61,476 nt of DNA from a virus (Duplodnaviria; Caudoviricetes), in IMG/VR virus record IMGVR_UViG_3300031184_000001, positions 1 to 61,476 of that record. One strand, written 5' to 3'. The notes under the pieces are model-generated. The model was not told the DNA's origin and searched no databases. It was given only the letters and a program-made list of their open reading frames with translations. This document shows, in pieces, positions 21,224-38,200 of the stretch (its first letter is position 1; each line of letters opens with the position of its first letter). The translations under genes and the position numbers were made by a program.

Positions 21224-21565
21224 TTGGCGGCGAACGGACATGGCGGGGCGCGCGGTGGGGCTGGGCGGAAGCCCGGTGAGTTGAAGTCGCTGCTCGACAC
21301 GCCGATCCGCGAGGCTGAGAAGCGGATCGTTGATCGCCTCCCTCACCTACTGGCGAACCTGTTCGTCCTGGCCGATGGCGTGATGGTCGAGGGCGACATC
21401 CCTGGCGAGGACGGAGAGCCCTCCGTGTACAGAAAGCCCCCCGACCGCCAGGCAAACGAGTACCTCATCAACCGCGTGATGGGTAAGCCGACCGAGAAGA
21501 CCGAGGCCGATGTGCAGGTGTCTGGCGGCGTGACGATCTACCTCCCTGATCGGAAGGTCGGTTGA
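21224..21565 (+). CDS. Terminase small subunit
   Basis: GHGGARGGAGRKP N-terminus, ANEYLINRVMGKP; directly upstream of TerL. Confidence 0.75.
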   Translation: MAANGHGGARGGAGRKPGELKSLLDTPIREAEKRIVDRLPHLLANLFVLADGVMVEGDIPGEDGEPSVYRKPPDRQANEYLINRVMGKPTEKTEADVQVSGGVTIYLPDRKVG

Positions 21566-23025
21566 TGGCTGTCGCATCGGCGCCGCCACGCCTCGTCTAT
21601 CGCCCCCAATCGAAGCAGGAGCCGTGGCACGCTTGCCCTGCTTTCGAGTCCGGCTTCGGCGGCACCAAAGGCCCTGGTAAGACGCTGGCGATGCTGATGG
21701 AAGCCACGCGCGGCGTTGGGCACTCGCGCTACCGGGCGATCATCTTCCGCCGCACGTACAAGCGCCTCCAGGAAGTCATGGACCGGGCCTGGGAGTGGTT
21801 CCCGCCGCTGGGAGCCAAGTGGAACGGCGACCACGCCCGATGGACGTTCCCGTCCGGTGCGATGATCTCGATGCGCCACTGCGAGAACGAAGAGGACAAG
21901 CGGATCTACCACGGCCATGAGTATCACTTCATGGCGTTCGATCAGCTCGAAGAGTTCTCCGAGACGCAGTACACGTTCCTGATGGCGCAGTGTCGGTCGT
22001 CGGTGCCCGAGATCAAACCATACCTGCGTACCACGTTCAACCCAGGCGGCATCGGCCACGCCTGGGTCAAAGAGCGGTTCCTGTCGCGCGGTACCCGAGA
22101 CTGCGCGCCGTGGACACCACGGAACGAGCAGGGCGACCCGCTGCCGACGCGCTGCTTCCACTTCTCGAACATCTACGACAACCAGATTCTGCTTGACGCC
22201 GACCCGCAGTACATGATGGTGCTCAACAGCTTACCGGAGCAGGATCGGCGAGCACTGCGTGACGGTGACTGGGACGTGTTCGCCGGCCAGGTGCTCACCG
22301 AGTGGCGCCGCGAGAAGCACGTCATTGATCCGATCCCGCTTGACAAGGACTGGCAGCGGGTACGGATGACGGACTACGGCTCTGCTCGGCCGTTCGTCAC
22401 GCTATGGGCCGCGCTCGACAAGAGCGTGCCCCGGGTCTACATCTACCGCGAGATCAGCCAGCCCGGCCTGCTTGCCTCGCAGCAAGCGCAGGCTGTGGTC
22501 AGTCTGACGGGCGAGGACGAGAAGATCAGGCTGCATGTTGCGGACCCTGCTATGTGGATCAAGTCGCCTGACTCTGGCAAGTCGATCGCGCAGATCTACT
22601 TCGAGAACGGCGTCACGCTCACGCACGCCAACAACGATCGCCTGAACGGGCTGGCCCGAGTTCGTGAGTACCTGAAAGATGCGCCGGACGGTCGTCCGCA
22701 TCTCCAGGTGTTCTCGTCGTGCATCCAGCTCATCAAGAACCTGCCATCCCTGGTCTACGACGCTCACAAGGTTGAGGACGTCGATACGGATGGCCCGGAT
22801 GACGAGTACGACGCGCTCCGCTACGGCCTGATGGCGATGGAGTCGATCCCAGACTTCTCGGCGCTCGCCACATCTATGCCCCTCGGCTTTAGCACTGGTG
22901 CGACGAACGGCCGGCCGACGCAGCCGACACCCGTGCCCGACTTCACCGGCCTGAACGGTAAGAGCGATAAGGATGCCCGGCTCGCTGCGCTGTTCGGCGA
23001 GTGGCAGTCGACGGGGGTGCGGTGA
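21565..23025 (+). CDS. Terminase large subunit
   Basis: FGGTKGPGKT Walker A, MAFDQLEEF Walker B, TFNPGG, DYG and DDEYDALRY nuclease motifs. Confidence 0.95.
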   Translation: MAVASAPPRLVYRPQSKQEPWHACPAFESGFGGTKGPGKTLAMLMEATRGVGHSRYRAIIFRRTYKRLQEVMDRAWEWFPPLGAKWNGDHARWTFPSGAMISMRHCENEEDKRIYHGHEYHFMAFDQLEEFSETQYTFLMAQCRSSVPEIKPYLRTTFNPGGIGHAWVKERFLSRGTRDCAPWTPRNEQGDPLPTRCFHFSNIYDNQILLDADPQYMMVLNSLPEQDRRALRDGDWDVFAGQVLTEWRREKHVIDPIPLDKDWQRVRMTDYGSARPFVTLWAALDKSVPRVYIYREISQPGLLASQQAQAVVSLTGEDEKIRLHVADPAMWIKSPDSGKSIAQIYFENGVTLTHANNDRLNGLARVREYLKDAPDGRPHLQVFSSCIQLIKNLPSLVYDAHKVEDVDTDGPDDEYDALRYGLMAMESIPDFSALATSMPLGFSTGATNGRPTQPTPVPDFTGLNGKSDKDARLAALFGEWQSTGVR

Positions 23026-24086
23026 TGTACGACCAGATCCACCGCCTGCTGGCTGAGGTGCGTCCTATCGCGGCGCGGACCCGCACATCGGTGAATACGT
23101 GGTTTGAACACTATGACCGGCAATCTGGGGTGGTGAGCCTTCGTTTACAGGCGCGCTTCCACTGCGAGAGCGGGCGCCGGGAGTATGCAACTGACCCGCG
23201 CTGTCGGCGAGTTCCTGGTCGTCTCGACGATGCTCCGGATCGAATACTAGTGGCGTTGCAAGCGCACGAACAGGCTCACGAAGCCTGGGCAGTATCCGCC
23301 TCGGGGTTCGTCTGCCTACTGTGTGATCGCCCCGATATCCACATGCATGCGGTGCCCGTAGGACAGAGGCCGTCGTGGTGATGCCGACGCCCGAAGAGAT
23401 TAGGAAGCGACTCGCGCTGGCCGAGAGCGACGCCTGGGCCGGGGACACCTCCTGGATCGCGGAGTTGTTCGGCGTCCTCAATGCCGTACTCCCGGACCTT
23501 GTCGCGCCGCCACCTACGGGACTTCCGCCGACCGATTGGGCGAGGTGGACCTGTGACCGATGCGGCACCAGCGCCATGTTCTCGAAGAAGGGCGCCACTC
23601 CAGCGCAGCAACTGGCCGAGGATGCGCTGGTCTCTCATCTTGCCCAGCACGGGGTCAGGTAGATGCGACCACCGCCGAAGATGACGATCCCCCACGCGGG
23701 CGAGATGACGTATGTCGTATTCCCGCGCTTCGCTCGTGAGATGAACGAGGTTACTACGTGGATAGCTGAAACTGTCGCGATGGCTCAGGACGCCGAGTTG
23801 ATGAAGCCCGAGACGTGGGACTTCGAGAACGCCGAGCGGCATGCGCCGGCGCAGCGGGACAACCCGATGGGACTGTGCGGCCAACTGTGGGGGCCAAAAG
23901 CCTGCCCCGACTGCACCCCTGAACAACCTTGCCAAAGAGTCAGGCGGTTGACGGGTGCGTAGGCGCGACGTGGTGAACTACTGGGCGTGGTTCTTCAACT
24001 ACCGCGCTGACGCCGAGCGACTGCGGCAGGTGTGGCGATCGGGACTGGTGACCTGGGACCAGTTCCTGGAGATCATGAGCGACTGA
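23025..24086 (+). other. Four small genes between terminase and portal (23025-23381, 23378-23662, 23663-23962, 23973-24086)
   Basis: Abutting ORFs, three with CxxC motifs. Confidence 0.65.
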
Positions 24087-24475
24087 TGGCTGGCATGAAT
24101 CGACGCAGCTTCCTGAAGGTGTTGGGCGGCACGGGCCTGTCGATCGTGGCCGCGCCGCTGTTCATCCCGTCCGAGCGGCTGGACTTCGGCGTGCCGCGCG
24201 GCCCCATCGCGCTGCCCACCGAGGAGGAAGTCGCCGAGATCCTGGCAGTCTCTGAACAGCCCCTCACCATTGGGACGTGGTCGTACACGGCGTTCGCGGT
24301 CGATACGGCATCGGCGGCCGACTTCATCCCCGAGATCTGGTCGAAGTACGCCAAGGGGATGGCCGGGCAGGATCTCGTTTTCTCGAAGCTGATGGCCAAG
24401 TCGAACATCCGAGATCTGATCTGGCACGGCGCATCGGTTCGGTTACCTGCGGTGTCGCGGAAGGCCCTCGCCTGA
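24086..24475 (+). CDS. Tat-signal protein carrying permuted major-capsid fragments
   Basis: MNRRSFLK plus h-region; LTIGTWSY and FIPEIWSKY...GASVRLPAVS match capsid residues about 87-101 and 9-61. Confidence 0.75.
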   Translation: MAGMNRRSFLKVLGGTGLSIVAAPLFIPSERLDFGVPRGPIALPTEEEVAEILAVSEQPLTIGTWSYTAFAVDTASAADFIPEIWSKYAKGMAGQDLVFSKLMAKSNIRDLIWHGASVRLPAVSRKALA

Positions 24476-24918
24476 TGGCCGAGTACGGGCAGGGCATGGT
24501 CAGGCCGGGCGCGTGGTCATTGGGCGGCACGCTGGTGCGCTCTTCGGAAGTACCGGCGCTGGTGGCAACGCCGGCATCTCCGAAGATCACTGATCCGTGT
24601 GATGAGCGGTATATCCCAGAAATCTGGTCGCGCCGCGCCATCGAGGCGCGAGAGCAACAGTTGCAGTGGCAACGTCTGACGGCCGCGACTGGAACGTACG
24701 CGCCGGTGGCCGTGCTGTACAGCACGAGTGGGTCGCCGCTCACCCCATCGTGGGGAGTGAGTACTCAGGGTGCGTCGTGTGTCTCTTGGGGGACCAGCAC
24801 GCACGCCGGGATGTGGGTTGCTCCGCTCCGCCAGACCGCTCCATTCTGCCAACTCTGTACCCGAGAAGGCGTCCATATCCACTCTGTGCCGAATACTGGC
24901 CGTCCGGGGAAGTGGTGA
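24475..24918 (+). CDS. Protein with a capsid N-arm motif and a CxxC/HxH tail
   Basis: YIPEIWSRRAIEAREQQL vs capsid YIPALWSKYVIRAREQRL; TGATG overlaps on both sides. Confidence 0.7.
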   Translation: MAEYGQGMVRPGAWSLGGTLVRSSEVPALVATPASPKITDPCDERYIPEIWSRRAIEAREQQLQWQRLTAATGTYAPVAVLYSTSGSPLTPSWGVSTQGASCVSWGTSTHAGMWVAPLRQTAPFCQLCTREGVHIHSVPNTGRPGKW

Positions 24919-27056
24919 TGGCTGAGTACACCAACCGCCACAACATCGTGGGCGAAGCGATCCCCGAGCTGTTCACGAAGCACAACGGCCGGTACACGGG
25001 CTCGCACGGTCGGATCTCCGATGCCCGCTCGCTCCTGATCGGCGAGATGAAGGCGCCTTTGCCGGACGTGCTGGCCAAGCGCGAGGACTGCGAGGCGTTC
25101 CGCGTCGACACTGCCCAGAAGTACACCAGCGTGATGCAGCTCCTGAACAAACTGGCCGGCACGGAAACCAAGGACGAGCCAGAGTTGAAGCGGCCGAAGC
25201 TCGGTACGTCCGACCTCCACGAGCGCAACTCGTCGCGCATCGAGCGGTTCAGCAACCCGTCCGTCTCGCGCTCGCTCTCGCATCGCGACCTGACCGAATT
25301 GGCACTGGTCGAGGCCGAAGGCTGCGCCATCGAGGTGCCTGAGGTGGCGCGCTTTGCGCGGGTGCCGGGCCACTACTACGAGGACGACAAGGCCGAGCGG
25401 ATCAAGCCGGAGTTCCGTCGCAACGCGCAGGGCCACGAGTACCAGGACGCGCTCGACACGGCGAAGGACGAGCAGGGCGACGACTTCGATGAAGAGAAGT
25501 TTGACGCGGACTTCGGCACCGACGAGAAGCAGAGTCGTCGAGCGTACGACCGCCACGTCAAGGCGCTCCGAGCCCGCAACTTCCCCTCTGACACGCAACT
25601 GCTGTCTCGTCTCCAGTACGTCCCGATCAACCCGCTCATCAAGGGCCCCGACGTCACGGTCGACGGGATCATTTCGCGGACGCGCATGGCTCCCTCTGAC
25701 GCGATGCGCCGCAACTACATCATCGACGGCCTACACGATCATCTGGAGCCGAAGGACACGACCGAAGGCGACATGGAGACCGGCGACCTCTGGCTGTACC
25801 AGGCGTGGCTGACCGACCAGGACGCGGACGGCAACCTGTACCCCTACGTGGCCTATTCACTCGCGGGCAAGCACACCCGCGTCGAGCGGCCGGGCTTCGA
25901 GGACGCGGCTGTCATCGACCTGTACAAGCAGTGCGGCCTCCGCACGCTGCCCGTCGTGCCGTTCTACGGCTGGCGCTGGTTCAGCACCGACCCGGATAAG
26001 CGGGCGATGCCGTACACGTTCCCGTTTGGGCGATCATGGCTTGCGGGCGACGCGTTCCTGACGGGCAAGGCGTACGCCGGCTGGTCCGAGGGCATGCTCG
26101 CCTGGTTCATGCAGATGCCAGACTCCGTTCGCGACACCGCCATGCAGCAGGCGTGGATGGAGTTCGTCAAGCAGAACCCGCTCACCATCGAGCCCTTCAA
26201 GATCACCCCAGTCTGGGGGACGATGATCCCGGCCCAACACCCAGGATCTGGCCGCGACGTCAACGAGATGATCGGGGCGCTCAACGGGTCGAACAGCCAG
26301 GATCTGGTCTCGCCGCTGGCCCGTGGTGGCGGTGACGCGGGCTCGGCGATCGAGCGCAGCGTGGTCTCGGCCGATACGCTGGCTGGGGTGTCCGACATCC
26401 GTCGATCGGTGCTCAACGTCTGGCGCCGGGTGGGGGAACTGAAGCTTGAGGTCTGCTGCGGGGTCTCCAGGAAGACCGGCAAGAACGTGGTGGTGCTCGG
26501 CAATCCCGAGACGCCATCGGACGGCGGCAGCGTCACCCGCGCGCTGATCGAATTGGACCCGCGTTGGCTCGGCCCCGAGGGCGAGGAGTCGTTCGACCTC
26601 GAAGCCTCCTATCCTCAGAATCTCGGCGACGACCTGGCTGCCAAGGCGCAGTTGTTCGGGTTCTGGGAGAAGGACGCCATCACGGACGAGGACTGGTGCC
26701 AGGCGATTGGGGTCAAAGACCCTGACCGCTACATGGCGCAATTGCTTTACCAGCGGTGGAAGAAGACGCCGCCTGCGCTCCAGATCATCATGAAGGACGC
26801 CGCCGAATACCTCGGGGACAAGGAATTGGTCGCGCTGTTCGGGGCGCAGCAGTCCGGCGCGGCCGGTCAGCAGGGCGAGCCGATCGGCATGACGGCCGGG
26901 CTGAATCCGCCGATGGGCGGGAGCTCGGACCCCGGCGCCCAGGCGGCCACGGGGATGCAGAACCCGGCCAACTCGCAGTACGCGGCCATCGCGGCGGCCG
27001 GGCGTCAGGCGTCAGTCGGCGGGTTGCAGCAGCCAGTGCAGGGAGCGCCGGTCTGA
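24918..27056 (+). CDS. Probable portal protein
   Basis: 712 aa, first large gene after TerL, IGVKDPD crown-like motif and Q/G-rich tail; positional call. Confidence 0.65.
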   Translation: MAEYTNRHNIVGEAIPELFTKHNGRYTGSHGRISDARSLLIGEMKAPLPDVLAKREDCEAFRVDTAQKYTSVMQLLNKLAGTETKDEPELKRPKLGTSDLHERNSSRIERFSNPSVSRSLSHRDLTELALVEAEGCAIEVPEVARFARVPGHYYEDDKAERIKPEFRRNAQGHEYQDALDTAKDEQGDDFDEEKFDADFGTDEKQSRRAYDRHVKALRARNFPSDTQLLSRLQYVPINPLIKGPDVTVDGIISRTRMAPSDAMRRNYIIDGLHDHLEPKDTTEGDMETGDLWLYQAWLTDQDADGNLYPYVAYSLAGKHTRVERPGFEDAAVIDLYKQCGLRTLPVVPFYGWRWFSTDPDKRAMPYTFPFGRSWLAGDAFLTGKAYAGWSEGMLAWFMQMPDSVRDTAMQQAWMEFVKQNPLTIEPFKITPVWGTMIPAQHPGSGRDVNEMIGALNGSNSQDLVSPLARGGGDAGSAIERSVVSADTLAGVSDIRRSVLNVWRRVGELKLEVCCGVSRKTGKNVVVLGNPETPSDGGSVTRALIELDPRWLGPEGEESFDLEASYPQNLGDDLAAKAQLFGFWEKDAITDEDWCQAIGVKDPDRYMAQLLYQRWKKTPPALQIIMKDAAEYLGDKELVALFGAQQSGAAGQQGEPIGMTAGLNPPMGGSSDPGAQAATGMQNPANSQYAAIAAAGRQASVGGLQQPVQGAPV

Positions 27057-27728: not shown

Positions 27729-29537
27729 GTGATTGATCCGGGCTACTGGGCGAACATGCGCCCCTTCACCACCGATCCTAGCGTCGGCGTGCCGCCGGCT
27801 TATGACACGCGCGGATCGCAGGGTGCCACGGGCGTGCCCGATCAAAGCGCGGCTGCCCAGCAGAACCCGTACGACTGGACGCAGGCGTTCGTCGAGCAAG
27901 AGCGCCAGCGCCGCGCCGAGTCTGACAAGCAGTACCAGATCCAGCTTCAACAGCTTGAGCAGTCACGCCAGCGCGACCTCGTGACCAAGGGCACGGCCGA
28001 GGCGAACGCCGCGTACAACCGTGGGATGCTCCAGCTTTCCCAGGCCAAACTCGCGGAGGACAAGCGGCAATTCGACACGACCACCCAGCAGGCGATGCAG
28101 CAGTTCACCCTCAAGCAGCAGGAGCTTGCTCGGCAGTTCGACACGACTACGGCTGAGGGAAAGAGGCAATTTGATCTCGCATCGGCGGAAAGCAAACGTC
28201 AATTTGATGCGACGTTCGGACAGCGCGCGACGCAGTTCACGCAAGATCTGGACTTCAAGAAGTCCCAACTGACCGAGGGCGCCAGGCAGTACGACCTCTC
28301 CAGAGGGGACCAGCTCGCCCAGTTCGCCGATTCGATGGGATTGGACAGGGCCAAGCTTGCGGAGACGGCCAGGCAGTACGACCTTACCCGCGTCGATCAG
28401 CGCGAGCAGTTCCTGGCCAACCTTGCCGAGCAGCACGACCAGTTCCAGACGACCGCGACCGGCTACACGCCCACGGGGCAGGCGACGCTGGAGCGCGAGA
28501 AGTTCGGCAACCAGGCGCTCTTGGATTGGACCACGAAGGCGATCGACCTGGCAAGTAACCCGGCCGACTGGATCAAGTACAAGCAGATGACCTCCGGGGT
28601 CGCTGGAAACCTGGCCAACATCCCCGGCCTCGCCTGGACGCAGGGTGGCCAGCAGGGTAACACGGCGTTCAACGGCACCCCCCAGGCGAACAGCCTCGGG
28701 AACGTGCTCGGGCAGATGGGCATCCAGCAGCCCGGCCAGGGCGAGGTGCGTCCAGGTGCATCGCCACCCCCCGGCGGACCGCAACCAGGAGCGCTCAGTC
28801 CGGCCGAGCAGTCTCGGTTCAACGAGATAACCTCGCGTCGGGCTGCACTCGCGGCAGCCCATGAGGGCGACGTGTCCCCCGAAGACCTGGCAGAGCTTCA
28901 GCGATACCAGGCTCGCGGCGCCGCACAGACGGTGATTCCGCTCTCCCCGCAGGAGCAGGCGCGTGCCCAGCAGATCATGGAGCGGCAGGCCCAGCAGCGT
29001 GCCGCAGGCGAGGCAGTGGACCCGAGCGACGCAGCCGAGCTCGCGCGGTACCAGGCACGGGGCAGCCAGCCGTCTGCGCCAGCCGGCGACGGGAGCGGCG
29101 GCTACTACCTGCGCAGCGGCGCCGGCGGGGCGCCGGCGGGTGGGGTTGCAGACGCACAGCCAACACCCTCGCGGCCCGGCTACGTGGACAGCGCCGCGCT
29201 CTCCCCGATGCAGAACCCGAGCGCGATGGCCCCGGCTGCCGCACCACAGACCCAGCAGCCTGTGACCAACTGGGCGCTGGCCGCTGCCAACATGATTCCG
29301 ACTGGCGACGCCTTGCGGAGCAGCCTGAGCGCGCCAGAGCAGCAGATCTACGACACGGCCAACGAGTTTGCCAAGAACCCGCAAGGCGCGGCGAGCGGCT
29401 GGTACGAGCAGCAAGACCCGATGACCAAGGAGTTGATGCGGGGAGCGGCACAGGCTCAAGGCCACGACTGGACGACCGTCATGTCTAGGTACAACCGGAG
29501 TCGCTGGGGCGGTGGCGGATCGGCGATGGCAGCATGA
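27729..29537 (+). CDS. Putative ejection/pilot protein with RQFD coiled-coil repeats
   Basis: Six (K/A)RQ(F/Y)D repeats, Q/A-rich; resembles podophage DNA-transfer proteins. Confidence 0.6.
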   Translation: MIDPGYWANMRPFTTDPSVGVPPAYDTRGSQGATGVPDQSAAAQQNPYDWTQAFVEQERQRRAESDKQYQIQLQQLEQSRQRDLVTKGTAEANAAYNRGMLQLSQAKLAEDKRQFDTTTQQAMQQFTLKQQELARQFDTTTAEGKRQFDLASAESKRQFDATFGQRATQFTQDLDFKKSQLTEGARQYDLSRGDQLAQFADSMGLDRAKLAETARQYDLTRVDQREQFLANLAEQHDQFQTTATGYTPTGQATLEREKFGNQALLDWTTKAIDLASNPADWIKYKQMTSGVAGNLANIPGLAWTQGGQQGNTAFNGTPQANSLGNVLGQMGIQQPGQGEVRPGASPPPGGPQPGALSPAEQSRFNEITSRRAALAAAHEGDVSPEDLAELQRYQARGAAQTVIPLSPQEQARAQQIMERQAQQRAAGEAVDPSDAAELARYQARGSQPSAPAGDGSGGYYLRSGAGGAPAGGVADAQPTPSRPGYVDSAALSPMQNPSAMAPAAAPQTQQPVTNWALAAANMIPTGDALRSSLSAPEQQIYDTANEFAKNPQGAASGWYEQQDPMTKELMRGAAQAQGHDWTTVMSRYNRSRWGGGGSAMAA

Positions 29538-30162
29538 TGACAATAACGGTTCGATCAGGTCCGATGGTCACGACTCCCACAAGCACGCTGATTGGCCCAC
29601 AGTGGACGAGCAGTATCCCCGGTGCGCAGATCTTGGACCCTGAGACGGGCCGATCCTGGCGTGTGCACGCCCGCTGGCCGAAGTGCCGATTCAACTCGCC
29701 GGAGGCTGCCGCCGCTCGGATCGCGCGGACGTCTGACCCGAAGGTGATGGCCGCGATCAAGGCGCAAGCCGTCGTCCCGTCCATCTGCAACTGCGAGTGG
29801 TGCGTGACGGCGCAGGGTGCGACCTGGGGCAGCGACGAGTATCAGGCGTGGATCAGGGCGCACCAGGAGGCGCGCGAGACGTGGCCGGCAGCGTACTGGG
29901 AGCGGCTGTACCCGTGTCTGGCATTCGTGGGCCCAGTGAAGGCCGAAGCGGAGGCGTTCTCAGCATGACGATTCTGATGTGGTGTTTAGTCGCTTCAGTG
30001 ATTGGCGTCGTGGTCATGTTTGGTAGCGTCTTCGGCCTCACCGTGCTCTTACTGCCAGTCGCTGACGCCGTGCAGTTCGCCACATGGTCCGCTATTGGTA
30101 TGGCAATCGCCTCGCCGTTTTGTTGCCTATTCGGGTGGTTAGGTGCTCAGGGGGCAGCATGA
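29534..30162 (+). other. Two small genes (29534-29968 CxCxxC protein; 29965-30162 2-TM protein)
   Basis: ATGA-coupled ORFs. Confidence 0.6.
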
Positions 30163-30944
30163 AGCACGCACTGGTAACAGGCGCATCCTCCGGCATCGGC
30201 AAGGCCGTCGCCGAGGCGTTGCTACAGGACAGCTGGTCAGTGCTCGGCACGTCTCGGCGGAAGCCCGCCATCGAGCACGAGCGGTTCTCCTGGATCGGGA
30301 CGGACCTCGTCTCGAAGTACCAGGCCGGGCGAATCGGCAACGCGTACAAGTTCGGCCACCCGCTCGACGCGTTGGTGCACTGCGCCGCGACGTACGGCCC
30401 GGAAGGCTGGGTCGGCGATGTGGACGCCGAGGACTGGGTCCGCACCATCACGGTCAACCTGGAGGCGACGTTCCACGTCGTACAGTCGGTGCTACCGTAT
30501 CTCCTGAAGTCCGAAGACGGCCGTATCCTGCTGTTCTCCGGTGGTGGGGCATTCGGTCCGTACGCTGGCCGCTCGGCCTACGCAGCCTCGAAGGCCGGCG
30601 TGGTGAGCCTGATGGAGACGATGGCCGAGGAACAGGCGCGTGTCAGTGTCAACTGCGTGGCGCCTGGGTACGTGCCGACGCCGATGACTGGCCACTTGGA
30701 TGCTCCGAGCCCCGAGAAGGATCGCGCGGTAGCGTGCGTGCTGCGCCTGCTGAGCTCCGAGACGAAGGGCCTGACGGGCAAGACGATCAGCGCCGAGCAC
30801 GACGACTGGTCAAGAATCAACCAGGAGAACGTCGAGAGCCTGAACGACAGCCTGCTGGGCCAGCGGCATCGGTACAAGCTCATCATCCCGGCGCCCCCGC
30901 TGGTTCCACCAGAGTGGCAGGCGCGTACGGGGATGCTGGTGTGA
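30159..30944 (+). CDS. Short-chain dehydrogenase/reductase (SDR)
   Basis: TGASSGIG NAD(P) motif, catalytic S and YAASK, NCVAPG. Confidence 0.92.
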   Translation: MKHALVTGASSGIGKAVAEALLQDSWSVLGTSRRKPAIEHERFSWIGTDLVSKYQAGRIGNAYKFGHPLDALVHCAATYGPEGWVGDVDAEDWVRTITVNLEATFHVVQSVLPYLLKSEDGRILLFSGGGAFGPYAGRSAYAASKAGVVSLMETMAEEQARVSVNCVAPGYVPTPMTGHLDAPSPEKDRAVACVLRLLSSETKGLTGKTISAEHDDWSRINQENVESLNDSLLGQRHRYKLIIPAPPLVPPEWQARTGMLV

Positions 30945-31130
30945 AGGAGCCCGAGCGCAATGTGGCCTGGGATGAGGACTTCTGGGTTGACGATCGCATG
31001 AGCGGCTCGGCGCATGGCGTGAATGAGCGTGAGCCCGACGCCGCGCCGTTCATCCTGGTGCCCGATGGCGCCGGCGACTATCGCGAACATCAGGTGCTGC
31101 CGCGACCGAAGGGACGCCTGGGGTTCTGAC

Positions 31131-34100
31131 ATGCCGCTCTATCTGCCGCGCCGCACGCTCAACCAGAACGATGCCGCTGCCGCCGGGGCGCGCACGGTGT
31201 CGCTGGTCGACGACGTGACGCAGCGGTACGCGCAGGCCATCAACCCGACGCCAGATCCCCAGCCTGAGCCCGAACAGCCGTCCTGGCAGCTTCCGAGCCT
31301 CGAAAGTCTGGGCGTCACGGGTGCACCGTCGTCCGTCATGTCGGCGCTCGGCAGCGTTCCTCAGCGCGCCCGTCAGGCCGTGGCCGACACCGCGCCATCG
31401 TGGGCGCTCCCGAGCCTGGAGAGCCTGGGGGTTAGTGCTCCGAAGCAGCCCGTTGGCCCAACACCAACACCCGTTGGTGAAAACGCCAACGCCAACGCCA
31501 ACGGATTGCCAACGCCCTCGGCTGCGCTAACCCCTTCCTCTTATGCCCCGTCAAGCGGCACAGGCAGCCCCGATGTCGAGCGCTGGTCGTCCATCGTCGC
31601 TGAGGCGGCGCGCGCCGAGAACGTCCCCGAGTGGGCGATCAAGGGGCTGATGGAGATCGAGTCGGGCGGCGATCCCGAGGCCGTGTCGTCGGCCGGTGCG
31701 CAGTCGCTGATGCAGGTGATGCCGTTCCACTTCAAGCCCGGCGAGAACCCGAAAGACCCGCGTACCAACATCTTCCGGGGGGCCAAGGTCTACGGCGACG
31801 CCCTGCGGCGGTACGGCGACCCCGATAAGGCAGCAGCAGCGTACTTTGGGGCGATCGACGGCCAGGGCAATGTCACCAGCGCCACTGACGGCTCATCGGT
31901 GGACGGTCACGAGTACGTCCGACTCTTCCGTCAGGCCGCCTCGAAGTACGGCGGCGCATCTCCGAACGCCGGCGCTGGGGCCGCGAACCCTGCGCCGGCT
32001 GCCCCACCTGCGCCCCCGGCTGCTGGTACTCCCCCGGCAGCCGGGGGCTCCTCTGGCCTGTACACCGTCCGTGACCAGTGGGGTAACACGTTCACGATGA
32101 CCCCGGAGGCGTTCAGGAAGCGGCCGGGCGGCGCGGCTGATCTGACCGTGCTCTCGACGCCGCAGGAGAGCGCCCAGGGCGACTCGCTACGCATGGCGCT
32201 CGGTGACGCCCATCCGATGCCGGAGGATGCCAGCGACTCCGAGCGCTACGTCCAGCGGCTCTCTGACCCAAACGAGCCTGTTCCCCCGCCACTGCGCAAC
32301 GATGTGCCCTATGACCCGGCCAACGGGGAGACCGGGCCACCCCCGGGCTCGTCCGCGTGGTACATGGGGGATATGCAGCGCCAGCCGCTCGCCGCGACGA
32401 TGGGGCCGGACACGGCGACCGGCGCGGAGTACGATCCGAGGGACGCTGATAGCGGACGGTGGGAAGCCGTACCGTCTGATGTACCGCCGGCCGGTACGCC
32501 GGTGACCCCTCAGGCGTACCCCCAGAGGTCCGTAAGTGTACCGCCGGATGTACCGTCCACCTACGGCGACGCCCGCGACGAGCCCCAGGTTCCATACACG
32601 CCACCGAGTACGTCAAATGACGTACGCCCGACATACGGGCCTCCGCTCGAGCAGGCCGGGCCGGAGCAGCCAGCACAACCCAAGAGCCCGTTCAAGCCGC
32701 TCTACGACGCTGGCGGCGCCATTGTCGGGTATGTCCAGGGCGCCGTGCAGGATATCGGCAACACCGTCGCCACCGAGGGTATCGCAACCCCGATCGGCCG
32801 GGGCATCGCCAACGCCGTGACGCGCCCACTACTCGGCAAGCCGCCACTGCCGGACTCGGGCCAGCCTGAGACCACCATCGACCGCGCTATTGTGGAGACC
32901 GGGCGCTCGCTCGGCCGGAACATTGGCGCCGCACAGTCAGGAGTTGCCGAGGGCAACTACGGCGAGGCGGCGATGGGTGCGCTCGGGGTCGTCGGCGACC
33001 TGGCGCCGTCCACCACGCTAGCCCGGCAGTTGAACGAGATGGTGCCGAAAGGCAACTTCCCCATTGTGGGCGAGGTCGGGTTGGGCGACGCCATCATGAC
33101 AGCCGCGCTCGTTCGCGACGCCGCGCGGCTGGGCTATGGCGCGATCAAGGTTGGCGGACGACTGGGCGGGCCTATTCTTCAGGCGATCAAGGATGGTGTG
33201 CCGGCCGAGCGCTTCGGGCAGTGGATGGCCCGCAACGCCGAGAACGTGGCTGCTGCTGACGCCAGGATGGCTGCTGAAGGCTCGACGGTGGCTCCTGGGG
33301 TACTCGGGCAGATCCCGGAGGAGTTCGGACGCCCGTACCCGCCCATCAAGGGACGGATAGGCGATTTCGAGCAGGGCGCCCTCGGTGAGGCGTCTGCTGA
33401 GATGATCCGCGACTCCAGGATGCCGCGCGAGGCTGTGCATCCCGATCTGCGAGCGGCCGGCATCGGCCCTGAGATCACGCCACAGGTGGACACCAGTAGC
33501 CGACTCAATGCCGGGTTCGGGGTGGTGCCGGATGAGGCGCCGAGAACACCGCGTGATATCTGGGAAAGCCGGCTCACTGAGGATCTGGGCGTGCGCCCGC
33601 GCGAGGAGCCGATCACTGAGCCATATACGGACTCCACAGGTCGGCAGGTAACGAGAGCGCGGGCGGCTGAGTGGCGCGTGACGGAAGGCCCGAATGGCCC
33701 CGAGATGGCGCAGTACCGTCCGAATTTCTTCGGGAACGCTGAGGAGATCCCGGGCACTCGCCAACCGCTCGATGCTGTCTATCGAGTGATTTCTCGCGAG
33801 GACTACGAGGGCTCACTCCGTCGCGGCTTCCTTCAGTCGGACGGACGCCTGAACCTCGACGCCCGTGAGGGCACTGTCGCGAGTACATTTGAGCCGTCGC
33901 CGTTCTACAATCCGAAGAACGGCGAGGCTGTGGCTGTCCGAATCCGCGTGGACCCGCAAGACGGTTGGCGCCTTGACCACGACGGGTACATCAAGACCCC
34001 GAAGCCGATTCCAGTGGATCGCATCGAGAGGACACTAGCCTACACAACCAACGAGATGGGGAATGCTGTTCGCTACGCGCCGGGTTCTCAAACCGCGTCG

Positions 34101-36218
34101 GTGACAGCCGGCACCCTCCCCCCATCCGCCGCTCCCGACCGCCTGTCTGCCGTGAACCGCGTGCTCGGGCAGGGGGTGGCGTCGTCCGTCTCGGGCGGGG
34201 TCGGCGCGGCCGTCAACCAGGAGATGAACCCAGACGACCCGTACGCGGGCGTCAAGGGCTTTGCGGTGGGGGCCGTCGCGCCGTACGCCATCACGAAGGG
34301 CATGCGGGCGATTGCAGCGAGACAGGGGGGCACGGCCGGCGCGGATAGTGGCCTGCTGGCGATGTTTGGGCAGGCGCCGGGTGCCGGTGGCTTCAACCCG
34401 AACGCCGTGCAGCGCGCCGTCCAGCGAGCGCAGCGGCAGGCGTCGCCCGGACTTTCTCCGCTCCAATGGGTGCGCAAGCTCTTTGCCGAATCCGGGTACT
34501 CGTCGATGATTGGCCCGGCGACGTTTACCGTGAACCTGACGGGCAACGTGGCGGAACCGCTCTACGCCATCCCGAAGGAGACCACACGCGGCGTTGCCAG
34601 GGCGATCAGCACCGGGAACGCCTCGGCGCTGCGGGAGCCGGGCGAGATGGCTGCTGGTGCATTCCACGGGCTCTCTCAGGTCGGCTCGGCGATGGTGGAT
34701 GCGCTGACCGCGAGTGGCAAGTACGCGCCGACGCCGGGGCATGAGCCGCTCTCGGCCCAGACGCAGAATCCGATCGGCAAGGCCATCACAACAGGACTGG
34801 AGGCCGGCGGGCGCGTCTTCTCGGCGCTGCCTGACGCCGTCTTCGGGACCATCGCCCAGGGAGCCGGCGAGGCCAGGGCAGCCGCGCAGCAGGCGACGGA
34901 CGCCGGGCTGAAGGGCACGGCCTGGAAGCAACACGTCAACGACTTGCTGACCGACGCTGCGAACGTTCGTGCGGGTCAGTTGCCGACGCTCTCGGGCACG
35001 CAAACGGTCATTGATGAGGGCGCGGCCTACGCCAAGCGCCAGACGTTTCAGGACGATCTCGGCACCATCGGCAAGAAGGCGCGGAATTTCGCGACGGTCG
35101 GGAACATGCCCGTGGTCGGGAACCTCGTGACGCCGTTCTTCAACACCCCCTGGAACATGAACACCCGATTGGCCGAGCGCTCGCCGATCGGCTTCGCGAT
35201 GAATAGCCAGGGCTCGAAGTTCGACAAGATGTACGATGCCACGCTGGGGTCGGCACTCATGATCGGGTTGGCGGCCGGGCCGGTCGCAAGCGGCGTCATC
35301 ACGGGAGGTGGCCCCGACGACCCGCAGAAGAAAGCGGAGATGCGCTCGCAGGGCTGGCGTCCGTACTCGACGCTGATCGATGGGGTGTACGTCCCGAACC
35401 GCGTGATGGGCATCTACGCGCCACTGCTGAACGCGGCGGCTGACGTTCACGACTCGATCGCCTACAGCAAGGACAAGAGCCCGACCAGCATTGCCAGTAA
35501 CTACGCCGGGCGCCTCGGCCAGCAGCTCCAGCAGCAGCCGTACCTCCAGGGCATCTCCAGCATCATGCAGACAATCCAGGCCGGGTATGGCGGCGGCCTG
35601 GGATCGGCCGCTGAGCGGTACGCATCCTCAACGATCACCCGCATGGTTCCGTACGCCGCGACTGCTCGGACCATCGGCACGGCCCTGGACCCGAACGAGC
35701 GGACGGTCGACTCGGGGAAGAACACGCCAGCCTCGACGACTATCAGCCAGCAGGTCCAGAGCGGCATCGGGGCACGCGGCGGGCTGCCGATCGCGCAGGA
35801 CGTGCTCGGGCGGCCCCAGGAGAACCAACAACAGGGCGTCAAGGCCGTGTTCGCGCGGACGTCGGCAGAGAAGCCCGACCCGACCGTCAAGGCGTTCCTT
35901 GACGCTGGCGTGGACATCGGGTTTCCGAAGACGAAGCTGACCGTCGACACCATCCCGATGGATCTGACACCAGACGAGACGCGACGCTGGAATACCTATC
36001 GCGGCGAGATCCTCCAGCGCTTCAGCGGTAACCTGACCAGCCGCACCTTCTGGTCGAATCCCGAAGCTCGGAAGGTGGCAATGGAGGATCTGCTGCGCCA
36101 GGCCAACGATGCGGCCGACCAGCGGCTCATGCAGTCGATCGGCGCGGGGGATATCCGCCGCCGTGTCCTTGAAGCACGCCAGCAGCAGCGTGAGACGCTG
36201 AGATCGGGGGCACCGTGA
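31131..36218 (+). CDS. Giant internal virion protein with an SLT lytic transglycosylase and an ART-fold-like insert
   Basis: LMEIESGGDPEAVSSAGAQSLMQVMP SLT motif; 1695 aa; C-terminal PFFNTPWN/GWRPYS helical region typical of podophage ejection proteins. Confidence 0.8.
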   Translation: MPLYLPRRTLNQNDAAAAGARTVSLVDDVTQRYAQAINPTPDPQPEPEQPSWQLPSLESLGVTGAPSSVMSALGSVPQRARQAVADTAPSWALPSLESLGVSAPKQPVGPTPTPVGENANANANGLPTPSAALTPSSYAPSSGTGSPDVERWSSIVAEAARAENVPEWAIKGLMEIESGGDPEAVSSAGAQSLMQVMPFHFKPGENPKDPRTNIFRGAKVYGDALRRYGDPDKAAAAYFGAIDGQGNVTSATDGSSVDGHEYVRLFRQAASKYGGASPNAGAGAANPAPAAPPAPPAAGTPPAAGGSSGLYTVRDQWGNTFTMTPEAFRKRPGGAADLTVLSTPQESAQGDSLRMALGDAHPMPEDASDSERYVQRLSDPNEPVPPPLRNDVPYDPANGETGPPPGSSAWYMGDMQRQPLAATMGPDTATGAEYDPRDADSGRWEAVPSDVPPAGTPVTPQAYPQRSVSVPPDVPSTYGDARDEPQVPYTPPSTSNDVRPTYGPPLEQAGPEQPAQPKSPFKPLYDAGGAIVGYVQGAVQDIGNTVATEGIATPIGRGIANAVTRPLLGKPPLPDSGQPETTIDRAIVETGRSLGRNIGAAQSGVAEGNYGEAAMGALGVVGDLAPSTTLARQLNEMVPKGNFPIVGEVGLGDAIMTAALVRDAARLGYGAIKVGGRLGGPILQAIKDGVPAERFGQWMARNAENVAAADARMAAEGSTVAPGVLGQIPEEFGRPYPPIKGRIGDFEQGALGEASAEMIRDSRMPREAVHPDLRAAGIGPEITPQVDTSSRLNAGFGVVPDEAPRTPRDIWESRLTEDLGVRPREEPITEPYTDSTGRQVTRARAAEWRVTEGPNGPEMAQYRPNFFGNAEEIPGTRQPLDAVYRVISREDYEGSLRRGFLQSDGRLNLDAREGTVASTFEPSPFYNPKNGEAVAVRIRVDPQDGWRLDHDGYIKTPKPIPVDRIERTLAYTTNEMGNAVRYAPGSQTASVTAGTLPPSAAPDRLSAVNRVLGQGVASSVSGGVGAAVNQEMNPDDPYAGVKGFAVGAVAPYAITKGMRAIAARQGGTAGADSGLLAMFGQAPGAGGFNPNAVQRAVQRAQRQASPGLSPLQWVRKLFAESGYSSMIGPATFTVNLTGNVAEPLYAIPKETTRGVARAISTGNASALREPGEMAAGAFHGLSQVGSAMVDALTASGKYAPTPGHEPLSAQTQNPIGKAITTGLEAGGRVFSALPDAVFGTIAQGAGEARAAAQQATDAGLKGTAWKQHVNDLLTDAANVRAGQLPTLSGTQTVIDEGAAYAKRQTFQDDLGTIGKKARNFATVGNMPVVGNLVTPFFNTPWNMNTRLAERSPIGFAMNSQGSKFDKMYDATLGSALMIGLAAGPVASGVITGGGPDDPQKKAEMRSQGWRPYSTLIDGVYVPNRVMGIYAPLLNAAADVHDSIAYSKDKSPTSIASNYAGRLGQQLQQQPYLQGISSIMQTIQAGYGGGLGSAAERYASSTITRMVPYAATARTIGTALDPNERTVDSGKNTPASTTISQQVQSGIGARGGLPIAQDVLGRPQENQQQGVKAVFARTSAEKPDPTVKAFLDAGVDIGFPKTKLTVDTIPMDLTPDETRRWNTYRGEILQRFSGNLTSRTFWSNPEARKVAMEDLLRQANDAADQRLMQSIGAGDIRRRVLEARQQQRETLRSGAP

Positions 36219-38200
36219 ACCAGCAGGATGTCGAGAAGTGGATCGCCCAGCAGGGTGGGGACAAGCGGGTCCAGTACAGCCGGTCCACGCAGAAGGTCGC
36301 GAACCCAGCAAAGCAACTCACGCGAGCGGATGGCACGGACAACCCCGACTACGACCCGACCGCACCGGCCACCATCGAGATCAGCGAAGAGAAGTGGACG
36401 GCCGTTGACGGTGAGGGGAAGCCGACTGGCGCAGTGCTCAATGTGCGCCGGCGCCCTGACGGTGATTTCGACATCGTGAACCAGGGTGATGCCAACCCTG
36501 GCAGGCCAGCCGACGACACTCCCGAGAAGAAGAACGCCGCTGAGCTTCAGCGCCAGCGCGAGAAGAACGCCGCGCTACCGGCCAATCAAGACCCGGCCTA
36601 CGAGACCGACGCCGAACGCCGAACGCGGGCAGACGCGCGGATCAAGCAGCAGGGCTCCGATGCGGAGGCCGCCAGGCAGCGGTCGCGCCAGGATGAAGCC
36701 GACACACGGGCTCGTGAGGATCAGGCCCGCCAGAATGCCCCGAAGCCCCAGCAGGCTCCTGACGGCTCGTGGGGGTACTTCGACACGACGAAGAACCCGC
36801 CGGTCTGGGCGCCGATTGCCAACGCGCCAGGAGCCGCCGCTCCGAAGCCCGTCCAGGTCAACGGTCAGTGGGGCGTGTGGCAGCCGAACGCGGCCGACCC
36901 GAAGCAGCCACCCTCATTCGTCACGATCGAAGTGCCGAAGCCCGGCGTCACGCTCAAGAACGTGGACCCGTTCGAGATCAACTTTGACGATCCAGGGTTG
37001 GATGTCGGTGTTGGCGCGTGGGCCGCTCGTCAGCGTCAGAAGATCGGGCTCCCTGCCGAGCAGGGCGGCATCACGCAGGACGACTACGACAACGCTGTCA
37101 AGGAAGCGCATGGGCGGGCTGGCACGGCCATCACGAACGTGGCGAACGCCAACACGGTCATTCGTCAGCGCCAGCAGGACGAGGCGGGGCTCCGCAACAC
37201 CAGAAGCGAGGAGGCGGCATCAGACTTCACGTCGGCGCTCGGGGCGTTCTCGACGCTAACCAGCAAGGGCGGGTTCGACCCCGACTCGGGCAGCCTGAAG
37301 AACGTCATCCCTGGCTTGCTCTGGGAGATGAACAAGAACCGCGAGGAGCGAACGGCGAAGACCCCGCAACTCCCGGGCCTGCATCCCATGTTCCAGATCG
37401 CGAGCGCCCAGAGTGCAGCCACGGCCCAGCCACCGGCAGCCAAGGAGCAGGCTGCGGCTACCGGGCCGACCCCCGAGCCGTACCAGCCGCCGGGCGCGCC
37501 AGCGCCAGCACCCGCGCTCGGATTGGGCGCCGTGCCCGGCAGCATCGCGCCGAATGCAGCACCCCCGCCAGCACCGGCCGTGCCGGTTGCTGCTGCGCCC
37601 GCCCCCGCGATGGCGACACCTCCGGCCGGGCCGCCACCTAGTAATGCGCAGGCAGCAGCGAACGCGGGACCGGCCGGACAGGACGGCAGCGTCTGGCAGC
37701 CACCAGTGGCGCCAGGGACGGCACCGATGTGGCAACCCGCTGCGCCGCTGCCGCCGGCACCCAGTGGGGGTATTCTGCCGGGAGCTAACCCCATCCCGAG
37801 CGACTTGCCGACCGATGGCATGCTCCCGATCCAGGTGCCTACTGACCCAACCGTTACCGATCCGAACTACCAGCAGTCACAGTATCAGCCCTACAAGTAC
37901 AACATCATCCCGGGCCAGAACCCGTACCCGCAGCAGGATCAGGGCGACATGCAAAAGGCCCCGCTCGGGCAGGGGCCACTGTCGTCGTTCGCGTCATCGG
38001 CGGTCGGCGGTGACCAGCCGTCGAGCCCACAACCCGGCCAGGGCGGCCCGATGGACTCATTGCTGGCCGGCGCTGCCGGCGGGGGCTTCGATCCTGTCGA
38101 GGCAGCAGCGCGGCTGGTCAGCATGGGGGCGCCGCGTGATGTGATCGCGCAGGCGCTCGCGGGCTCTGGGCTGCTTCAGCGCGGACGGAGGGTTGCTTGA
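36215..38200 (+). CDS. Putative internal virion protein with a Pro/Ala-rich C-terminal half
   Basis: GTGA-coupled to the SLT protein; coiled coil plus low-complexity tail. Confidence 0.6.
   Translation: MNQQDVEKWIAQQGGDKRVQYSRSTQKVANPAKQLTRADGTDNPDYDPTAPATIEISEEKWTAVDGEGKPTGAVLNVRRRPDGDFDIVNQGDANPGRPADDTPEKKNAAELQRQREKNAALPANQDPAYETDAERRTRADARIKQQGSDAEAARQRSRQDEADTRAREDQARQNAPKPQQAPDGSWGYFDTTKNPPVWAPIANAPGAAAPKPVQVNGQWGVWQPNAADPKQPPSFVTIEVPKPGVTLKNVDPFEINFDDPGLDVGVGAWAARQRQKIGLPAEQGGITQDDYDNAVKEAHGRAGTAITNVANANTVIRQRQQDEAGLRNTRSEEAASDFTSALGAFSTLTSKGGFDPDSGSLKNVIPGLLWEMNKNREERTAKTPQLPGLHPMFQIASAQSAATAQPPAAKEQAAATGPTPEPYQPPGAPAPAPALGLGAVPGSIAPNAAPPPAPAVPVAAAPAPAMATPPAGPPPSNAQAAANAGPAGQDGSVWQPPVAPGTAPMWQPAAPLPPAPSGGILPGANPIPSDLPTDGMLPIQVPTDPTVTDPNYQQSQYQPYKYNIIPGQNPYPQQDQGDMQKAPLGQGPLSSFASSAVGGDQPSSPQPGQGGPMDSLLAGAAGGGFDPVEAAARLVSMGAPRDVIAQALAGSGLLQRGRRVA

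Follow-up and report, generated by a model that had tools for sequence, protein, structure and literature searches.

The DNA analysed here (the window) is the complete 61.5 kb genome of an uncultured phage from a soil metagenome, and the genes and gene parts treated in detail below lie on its plus strand. The late gene block, to which the head genes belong, starts with the gene of the large terminase (positions 21562-23025; Pfam Terminase_6N, E 2.1e-6; phrog_979, E 1.4e-44); further along lie two small open reading frames, ORF A (24086-24475, 129 aa, with its ATG at 24086) and ORF B (24475-24918, 147 aa), and a third frame of 712 aa (24918-27056). An initial annotation had described both small frames as TGATG-coupled into the portal gene. 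The stop/start overlaps were confirmed by direct reading at 24084, 24473 and 24916, and the coupling holds. The portal identity is unverified: the 712-aa ORF has no Pfam, PHROG, relevant PDB-sequence or phage-record match, and it is called a putative portal here by position and size only. One weak lead was obtained from the Atlas, a cluster in which 12% of the members carry SPP1_portal. No promoter- or terminator-like sites were found between positions 23000 and 25500, and the segment 23600-25400 is identical in an independent contig (Logan) of the probable source run.

The resident major capsid protein (288 aa) is encoded further downstream, at 42528-43394, and was recognised by its match to phrog_267 (E 2e-26). 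Its AF2 model (pLDDT 76) has the HK97 fold and matched phage capsids in the PDB in a Foldseek search (best E 1.3e-15). Among its 160 homologues some carry the source name N4-gp56 family, and the Pfam families PF25209 and PF19821 were found on the homologues; the protein belongs to the N4-gp56 / P22-coat-like group. The genome also codes for a 602-aa coiled-coil protein (27729-29537) and for large internal proteins (31023-38200). In HK97-fold shells the N-arms line the inner side. It is from a gene of this kind that the fragments found in ORF A and ORF B derive.

ORF A is a real and conserved gene. Its codon score of 0.735 bits/codon is typical of the genome (0.68 +/- 0.17 for in-frame windows), its GC3 is 0.85, and the capsid-derived half scored alone is fully gene-like (0.726 bits/codon). 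Three full-length homologues (P0005, P0006 and P0007; 107-131 aa) share 68, 54 and 51% identity with it and end at a similar point; the earlier argument that ORF A is not simple debris is borne out by this conservation and by the codon usage. Scans for further relatives yielded three loci of 1.2-1.4 kb in metagenomes and none in reference genomes, and in IMG/VR nothing came up apart from L008, a Tat-like ORF that is unrelated. The Pfam and PHROG scans detected no defence or anti-defence domain, and the PHROG scan of ORF A hit no head family. With a pLDDT of 0.33, the model of ORF A in the ESM Atlas is of poor quality and lends no support to an autonomous fold; a complex prediction of the capsid with ORF A residues 38-129 scored 0.01, which gives no verdict and is evidence neither way.

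The C-terminal half of ORF A contains a copy of the capsid N-arm helices and the first E-loop strand (24299-24463; capsid positions 9-62). This homology is solid: ORF A residues 72-125 align with capsid residues 9-61 at 19 of 54 identical positions (BLASTP E 1e-8), the profile-profile comparison by hhalign gave 98.3% probability over 50 columns (E 1.4e-14), and the capsid-family HMM matched with an iE of 4.2e-9. Ahead of this piece lies a copy of the E-loop return strand (24251-24310; capsid 83-102), for which the evidence is modest, although the homology is real: ORF A residues 56-75 match capsid residues 83-102 with a BLASTP E of 0.021 and an HMM iE of 0.0047 (0.03 in the homologue P0005), and with 1269 segments from the six frames of the genome as a control, the piece scored 7.8 bits against a best background of 1.2. 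It is present only in ORF A (P0001) and P0005, and absent from P0006 and P0007. In the shuffling test that the initial annotation had proposed (n=2000), the Smith-Waterman score of the N-arm piece was 88 against a shuffle maximum of 60, and that of the return-strand piece was 49 against 48. With both segments accepted, their order is swapped relative to the capsid, as the annotation had noticed. Its structural assignment also agrees with the AlphaFold model of the capsid, in which the copied segments comprise the N-arm helices (residues 11-39), the strand that leads out into the E-loop (53-57) and those that return from it (84-100). No capsid positions other than 9-62 and 83-102 are matched, so that a complete HK97 fold is missing; judged by these alignments, ORF A is a capsid fragment and no capsid protein.

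The annotation had further pointed to differing codons at shared residues, and these were counted in 10 of 19, 7 of 11 and 8 of 12 identical positions, at nucleotide identities of 53-58%. Since synonymous sites differ, the copy is old. The fragment fits the capsids of its own clade best (scores of 88-103, against a median of 71); its top matches, P0086 and P0065, are 70 and 76% identical to the resident capsid, which itself ranks 15th of 121. Conservation along ORF A is uneven: mean pairwise identity reaches 0.74 in the leader described below, and in the N-arm, the permuted piece and the tail it is 0.48, 0.23 and 0.26, respectively; in P0005 the tail is scrambled. The capsid part is thus far less conserved than the leader, which makes relaxed constraint or a filler role possible, and the capsid piece is probably under weaker selection. 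Within it, the stretch IPEIWS is invariant in all four homologues, and its last two residues, W22 and S23 of the capsid, are nearly invariant in 43 capsids.

The N-terminal part of ORF A is a conserved leader module (residues 4-37; 24095-24196), delimited in two alignments, A1 and A2. It consists of a twin-arginine motif, a hydrophobic stretch and a near-invariant PLFIPSERLDFGVP motif, and it is followed by a linker (residues 38-55; 24197-24250) that is conserved within the capsid-bearing subfamily (mean pairwise identity 0.65, four homologues). In both alignments P24, L32, G35, V36 and P37 are invariant; R6, R7, F9 and L10 are conserved in at least 90% of 50 family members, and the PLFIPSERLDFGVP motif is better conserved in the family than the RR motif. 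The twin-arginine start reported previously was recovered, with the consensus RRSFLK at residues 6-11 and the hydrophobic stretch directly after it. On curated models the leader of ORF A itself is marginal: TIGR01409 (cut-off 16.7) gave 15.8 bits in hmmscan and 17.0 bits in a six-frame search, where positions 24098-24160 were the sole match of the genome, and Pfam TAT_signal (PF10518) gave 17.8 bits (E 0.0032), below its cut-off of 22.7. TIGR01409 was above its cut-off in five of nine proteins scanned (P0005, P0012, P0015 and the family-member ORFs of the loci L010 and L011), with scores of 24.3 for P0012, 21.5 for P0015 and 23.1 for the L011 ORF. The profile of one subfamily of relatives (type 2) matched the Tat leaders of NapA and phospholipase C in the PDB (E 0.098 and 0.078). 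The uncleaved-anchor model UCR_Fe-S_N (PF10399, cut-off 24) matched weakly in the relatives P0037 (14.7 bits) and P0024 (12.6 bits) and did not match ORF A, and no Rieske domain was detected anywhere in the family. No AxA-type cleavage site that could be scored was seen in ORF A; on reading of its sequence, the stretch IVA-AP may be a candidate. No phage-encoded tatA was found. Tat targeting and the topology of the product are thus predictions from the leader.

A search with the leader retrieved 47 representative proteins at E<=0.001, a number that includes ORF A itself and one spurious match; P0019, a repeat protein of 3347 aa with 18 matched stretches, was set aside as a compositional match. 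Leaders of this type therefore appear to be widespread in uncultured phages. The wider comparison did not support capsid mimicry as the defining trait: it is the leader that defines the family, and the capsid N-arm was present in only 5 of 52 distinct family proteins tested. One of the carriers is a remote member, P0036, which matches capsid positions 15-62 (iE 1.6e-4). In four of ten members tested, the leader is followed instead by 35-45 residues resembling the start of a pectate-lyase-like tailspike domain (E 2.8e-4 to 4.9e-3; none of them reaches the Pfam cut-off). Profiles of the type-2 and type-3 subfamilies gave hhalign probabilities of 0.2% and 0.1% against the capsid family, so that the idea that all C-termini of the family are capsid-like is unsupported. 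The same subfamily profiles yielded only Tat-leader or chance matches among PDB sequences and only leader matches in the six frames of the genome, and their PHROG hints to head families had E values of 0.17-0.25. In the model of the type-2 domain, residues 70-135 are predicted with confidence, and no fold match was obtained for it at E<=0.001 (best 0.12 in the PDB and 0.007 in BFVD). As far as these comparisons go, the family is one of undescribed small phage proteins with one conserved leader and very different, seemingly interchangeable C-terminal parts. Full-text searches of the literature brought up no publication in which a Tat leader is joined to part of a phage capsid, and within the scope of these searches such a combination with the phage's own capsid belongs to no phage function described so far.

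ORF B had been presented as a second mimic gene. Its likeness to the capsid was upheld: residues 46-68 align with capsid residues 17-39 at 12 of 23 identical positions (BLASTP E 4e-6), and residues 32-68 (24568-24678) are homologous to the N-arm by the HMM (iE 2.7e-6 over capsid positions 3-39). Its status as a gene was not. No homologue was detected among 5.8 billion proteins, and none of 122 in-frame control windows has a codon score as low as its 0.117 bits/codon; no other frame or strand of the region is gene-like. The frame is flanked by a 14-nt direct repeat (repeat family D2), whose left copy (24473-24486) spans the stop/start overlap and the first four codons and whose right copy (24916-24929, 13/14 identical) holds the start of the 712-aa gene. 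No tandem repeat and no Rfam match were obtained in checks on its origin. The most likely origin of ORF B is an insertion or duplication of 443 bp, now a scar, by which another, decayed N-arm copy was carried in. The frame may nevertheless be translated: it is start-coupled and still open over 147 codons, and 83 of 5000 composition-matched shuffles (1.7%) were stop-free in it. Two other derivations were rejected: likeness to ORF A at the DNA level is confined to the 18-nt IPEIWS stretch, with 51 of 300 shuffles scoring as high, and the start of the 712-aa gene, as the other supposed source of a duplication, shows no similarity past the 14-nt repeat, with 844 of 1000 shuffles as high. The negative finding on ORF B as a gene guards against over-counting mimic genes. 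It also bears on the possibility that both frames are functionless, decaying debris of capsid-gene duplications, a description that ORF B, homologue-less and atypical in its codons, would fit. In ORF A the poor conservation of the permuted piece and the tail is in line with such decay, but typical codon usage, intact homologues and a leader conserved across the 47 representatives all speak for a maintained gene, and we regard debris as a highly improbable explanation for the pair.

In a different explanation, function resides in the leader, which might be a small peptide that interacts with the membrane or with Tat. The capsid piece would be filler that is tolerated; illegitimate recombination would have brought it into a slot of the head module that is prone to recombination, and its likeness to the capsid would serve no function. 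The unrelated C-termini found behind the same leader, the tailspike-like starts in four members, and the faster evolution of the capsid part, which carries indels, are all in agreement with this scenario, and ORF B shows that 5' fragments of capsid genes do insert at this place. Less easily reconciled with filler are the gene-like codon usage of the capsid-derived half, the retained match of the remote P0036 to the capsid, and the invariance of IPEIWS and several other N-arm positions among the four homologues, although roughly every second residue varies between them. On balance we consider the filler explanation rather unlikely; if it applied, the locus would clearly illustrate the assembly of new small genes from fragments that recombine within the head module.

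The reading that we put forward, to which we give about an even chance, is that ORF A is a late gene whose product joins a Tat-type leader to an old capsid copy and acts in the cell envelope. The N-terminal 37 residues would constitute a leader of the twin-arginine (Tat) type followed by the near-invariant proline-rich motif, and the C-terminal part would stem from the lineage's own capsid, as an old and diverged copy of the N-arm on its inner surface and of the strands at the E-loop base, one short piece being permuted. The protein would be made alongside the head proteins and recognised by the Tat machinery of the host; it would then either be released to the periplasm or, by analogy with Rieske-type anchors, be held by an uncleaved leader on the outer face of the inner membrane. 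An N-terminal RR leader with a hydrophobic segment would place the C-terminal part outside the cytoplasm, by the positive-inside rule and as in Tat class III anchors (PMC13673990). If the product is exported by Tat, the capsid-derived part would act in the envelope and not in the cytoplasm. Its activity might be to bind a partner that ordinarily contacts the inner surface of the capsid, but this is doubtful.

Head assembly in the cytoplasm provides another scenario, in which the leader tethers ORF A to the membrane while the N-arm copy binds portal, scaffold or coat protein and nucleates or modulates the procapsid. The gene lies among the head genes and is coupled to that of the putative portal, a location that would fit such a function better than an envelope role and in this respect stands against our main reading. 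At the locus L009 a family member lies directly 3' of a homologue of the 712-aa gene (E 4e-9 to the C-terminal part of the 712-aa protein), and the N-arms have an established place in the shell interior. Opposed to this are the non-capsid C-termini of other family members, the putative status of a portal without a family match, and the topology just cited: a Tat leader would put the capsid piece across the membrane, and readings that need it in the cytoplasm lose weight accordingly. We consider an assembly function unlikely.

The same topology weighs on the proposal that ORF A serves as a decoy for host defences that sense capsid protein, or that it interferes with the capsids of rival phages as a dominant-negative inhibitor. 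The leader directs the protein outward, whereas the capsid sensors known to date work inside the cytoplasm; moreover, a trigger-like fragment would be as likely to set off a sensor as to blunt it, and the Pfam and PHROG scans offered no defence or anti-defence domain. Nothing speaks for this proposal except the capsid mimicry itself and the best match of the fragment to capsids of the same clade, and it appears very improbable.

Our envelope reading can be extended to the family as a whole as selected self-mimicry, a compound proposal that we hold to be quite unlikely as it stands. The Tat leader would export short copies of virion parts that line the conduit of DNA and ejection proteins, namely the capsid N-arm in this phage and the beginnings of tailspikes elsewhere in the family. 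Once in the envelope, the copies might control entry by binding proteins for ejection or delivery, whether these belong to incoming kin phages or, at lysis, to the phage's own offspring; an arms race among related phages would have left its mark in the frequent swapping and permutation of passengers. Should ORF A be exported at all, it would show phages turning pieces of structural proteins from the cytoplasm into proteins of the envelope. The Tat system normally checks its passengers for folding, and ORF A would then present it, in a natural setting, with a short fragment that probably does not fold on its own.

Four known groups of proteins invite comparison. With the N4-gp56 / P22-coat-like HK97 capsids (phrog_267), homology to the N-arm and the E-loop base is shared by residues 72-126 and 56-75 of ORF A and residues 32-68 of ORF B. 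Only about 75 of the 288 capsid positions are represented, however; the A-domain, the core of the P-domain and the spine helix are missing, the pieces of ORF A are permuted, and the formation of a shell subunit is impossible. The internal proteins of phage T4, which have N-terminal capsid-targeting sequences, resemble the ORF A family in combining a short conserved N-terminal address with variable passengers and in being encoded among head genes. The leader of ORF A, in contrast, fits Tat models, being hydrophobic with invariant twin arginines, and a prohead protease site or a virion location is not known here. Small subunits with Tat leaders that travel as hitchhikers, such as the small subunit of periplasmic [Fe] hydrogenase (PF02256), are likewise small proteins, and in ORF A too the Tat leader is the main recognisable feature. 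They form the nearest Atlas clusters to ORF A, PF02256 being the nearest by features (0.92; 146 of 256 shared), which is a language-model lead only; ORF A has no Pfam match to the PF02256 family and no partner enzyme. Closest in the leader itself are Tat signal peptides and the uncleaved anchors of Rieske proteins (TIGR01409, PF10518 and PF10399), with which ORF A has in common the RRxFLK consensus, a moderately hydrophobic stretch rich in Ala and Gly, model scores around the cut-off and, in two relatives, weak matches to UCR_Fe-S_N. It differs from them in being encoded by a phage, within the head gene block, in the near-invariant PLFIPSERLDFGVP motif that follows the leader, and in its passenger, which comprises no cofactor domain and is a fragment of a cytoplasmic structural protein.

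The 61,476-base window, which is the whole virus record, carries direct terminal repeats and is rated complete; its GC content is ~65% and the sole sequencing run containing it is a soil metagenome. On the + strand, the large terminase gene (21562-23025; Pfam Terminase_6N, E 2.1e-6; phrog_979, E 1.4e-44) is followed by four small ORFs, ORF A (24086-24475), ORF B (24475-24918) and a 712-aa ORF for a putative portal (24918-27056). Direct reading of the sequence revealed three TGATG overlaps, confirming the coupling that the initial annotation had claimed for ORFs A and B. A short-chain dehydrogenase/reductase gene (30084-30944; Pfam adh_short, E 5e-36; phrog_3142, FabG-like, E 2.5e-37) lies within the virion gene block, flanked by genes for a 602-aa coiled-coil protein and a 1731-aa protein.

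The coding character of these ORFs was assessed by a codon log-odds score trained on 13 long genes. ORF A scored 0.735 bits/codon, and its capsid-derived half 0.726, within the range of the in-frame control (0.68 +/- 0.17, minimum 0.241, 122 windows); its GC3 is 0.85, and full-length homologues of 131, 118 and 107 aa are found at 68, 54 and 51% identity. ORF A is a gene, and the earlier view that it is not simple debris holds on the strength of its gene-like codon score and these homologues; pure debris is an extremely improbable reading. The terminase gene is overlapped at its 3' end by a 126-aa ORF (23001-23381) that scored -0.07 bits/codon, which is non-coding-like, with a GC3 of only 0.65; in this frame it may not be genuine coding sequence.

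The major capsid gene is located 18 kb beyond the ORF A region (42528-43394; phrog_267, E 2e-26), and a six-frame search found the IPxxWS motif at exactly three sites in the window, namely ORF A, ORF B and the capsid. Residues 72-125 of ORF A (the N-arm piece) align with capsid residues 9-61 at 35% identity (BLASTP E 1e-8), with a Smith-Waterman score of 88 as compared to a maximum of 60 among 2000 shuffles. A profile of ORF A and three homologues matched a 43-capsid profile with a probability of 98.3% (E 1.4e-14). The permuted piece, residues 56-75, resembles capsid residues 83-102 around TIGTW (BLASTP E 0.021; Smith-Waterman 49, shuffle maximum 48), with capsid-HMM iE values of 0.0047 in ORF A and 0.03 in its homologue P0005; it is seen only in these two proteins and is missing from the homologues P0006 and P0007. 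The capsid likeness is thus borne out, strongly for the N-arm; the permuted piece is accepted as real on weaker evidence, and with it the swapped order of the segments. In ORF B, residues 46-68 match capsid residues 17-39 at 12 of 23 positions (E 4e-6), and the capsid HMM recognizes the ORF over capsid positions 3-39 (iE 2.7e-6), so that its proposed capsid likeness also stands. As a control, the genome was translated into 1269 stop-to-stop segments; the only non-capsid matches above noise were the ORF A N-arm (27.6 bits), ORF B (17.5) and the permuted piece (7.8), the best remaining background match being 1.2 bits. Codons differ at 10/19, 7/11 and 8/12 shared residues in the copies, as had been noted, and nucleotide identity is 53-58%; with roughly half of the shared residues encoded differently, the copies are old.

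An IPELFTKH stretch also occurs at the N-terminus of the 712-aa protein (24960-24983), its DNA being 75% identical to the 24-nt stretch of ORF A coding for IPEIWSKY. ORF A residues 56-129 scored 34 against residues 1-150 of the 712-aa protein, a value reached in 21 of 1000 shuffles, and the capsid HMM gave no match to the IPELFTKH stretch; this resemblance is possibly due to chance.

An AlphaFold model of the capsid protein, built from 43 homologues (pLDDT 76), found phage capsids as its best PDB matches by Foldseek (best E 1.3e-15); some capsid homologues bear the source-given name "N4-gp56 family major capsid protein". In the model, residues 11-39 form the N-arm helices, 53-57 the outgoing E-loop strand, 84-100 the returning strands and 111-132 the spine helix. 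The pieces of ORF A therefore run from returning strand to N-arm helices to outgoing strand, and the E-loop tip and the remainder of the capsid protein are missing. With these elements located, the structural placing suggested by the initial annotation (N-arm helix and strands flanking the E-loop) proves right. The Atlas model of ORF A itself has a pLDDT of 0.33. When the capsid-like part of ORF A was scored against 121 capsids, each represented by its first 110 residues, the best scores were those of the capsid homologues P0086 (103) and P0065 (96), which are 70-76% identical to the resident capsid; the latter ranked 15th (score 88; median 71). By sequence comparison, the fragment is therefore derived from the capsid of this phage clade and is not a recent copy of the resident gene.

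A different picture emerged for ORF B. Its codon score of 0.117 bits/codon is under all 122 in-frame windows and over all 244 off-frame windows (maximum -0.172), its last 77 codons score -0.013, and its GC2 and GC3 are 0.62 and 0.72; the remaining frames of the region, on either strand, are not gene-like. Among 5.8 billion proteins there were 46 candidate homologues, none of which reached E<=0.1. A 14-nt sequence at the start of ORF B (24473-24486), comprising the stop/start overlap and four codons, recurs with 13/14 identity where the 712-aa gene begins (24916-24929). If the 443 bases separating the two copies were excised, ORF A would be coupled straight to the 712-aa gene. By visual reading of the alignments, the ARE motif of ORF B is nearer to the capsid version than to that of ORF A. 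ORF B is thus probably not the second mimic gene that had been proposed, in view of its atypical codon score, missing homologues and flanking repeat, but an insertion or duplication scar that carried in a capsid 5' fragment. Alternatively, it may be a young or lineage-specific gene, since its start is still coupled and its frame is open for 147 codons, a length matched by only 83 of 5000 composition-matched shuffles.

An exhaustive HMMER search over 1.84 billion representatives yielded a family of 47 proteins at E<=0.001, including ORF A itself, its only member in this genome, and one repeat protein (P0019) that is a spurious match. What the family has in common is confined to the N-terminal 37 to 50 residues: RRxFLK, an Ala/Gly-rich hydrophobic stretch and the PLFIPSERLDFGVP motif. 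Over 50 aligned members, P24, L32, G35, V36 and P37 are invariant, and conservation is 90% or higher at R6, R7, F9 and L10. Beyond this region the C-termini diverge widely. The capsid HMM (iE < 0.001) matched five of 52 distinct family proteins, namely ORF A, P0005, P0006, P0007 and, remotely, P0036; the idea of capsid-like C-termini throughout the family was unsupported by profile comparisons. Ten other members were tested, and four of these have the starts (35-45 residues) of pectate-lyase-like tailspike domains (PF12708, E 2.8e-4 to 4.9e-3, all under its cut-off), one of them, P0032, matching a PHROGs tail spike (E 3.7e-4). The largest group (18 sequences) has a small, confidently predicted domain, residues 70-135 of alignment A3 (first sequence P0041; pLDDT >90). 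The predicted shape of this commonest C-terminal domain is strand-rich, then helical, and structure searches gave no relative at E<=0.001; its best viral fold matches (E 0.007-0.1) are uncharacterised phage proteins of 50-130 residues, some annotated DUF7210. In the largest subfamily, a 25-residue motif (TxSWxNxFLDAEE...PIP) precedes the central domain in P0035 and trails it in P0041, P0028 and the L010:1-693 protein; segment permutation therefore seems to be recurrent in the family. A different small ORF on an IMG/VR contig (L008:8007-8402), near an integrase-like gene, has an RRSFLK leader without PLFIPSERLDFGVP.

On a soil-type metagenome contig (L009), a family member (589-1197) begins at the stop of, and overlaps, an ORF (2-592) that shows homology to the 712-aa protein over residues 541-683 of the latter (E 4e-9). 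The family member there lies downstream of the 712-aa gene homologue, whereas ORF A lies upstream of the gene; the linkage was thus seen in both loci with an identifiable neighbour, once on each side. The neighbours in two further short loci (L010 and L011) had no match in this genome.

Tat models match the leader around their cut-offs, and the type-2 subfamily profile matches genuine Tat leaders in the PDB; since the twin arginines are also conserved, Tat recognition is the best reading of the leader sequence. The phage genome is without tatA. According to a recent Tat review (PMC13673990), some Tat leaders are cleaved and others are kept as N-terminal anchors. In either case the passenger would lie outside the cytoplasm, which favours an envelope-located protein. 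Mean pairwise identity among the four homologues is 0.74 in the leader, 0.65 in the linker, 0.48 in the N-arm, 0.23 in the permuted piece and 0.26 in the tail. There is about an even chance that ORF A is a late envelope-located protein in which selection maintains the capsid-derived part less strongly. Our guess, a rather unlikely one, is that such a protein would bind, in the envelope, something that ordinarily contacts the capsid's inner face. To a functional leader followed by mere filler we give a similarly small chance, a cytoplasmic assembly tether is a little less likely, and a defence decoy or dominant-negative inhibitor is very improbable.

ORF A lacks the domains of known Tat passengers, among them Rieske and hydrogenase small-subunit domains, and a full-text literature search, judged at the level of search results, returned no report of a Tat leader fused to part of a phage capsid protein. 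Compared with known Tat signals, the ORF A leader carries the motif, and its model scores are borderline. Homology places the passenger with the N4-gp56/P22-coat-like capsid family, but it does not comprise the complete fold; it is a capsid fragment, and not a capsid protein.
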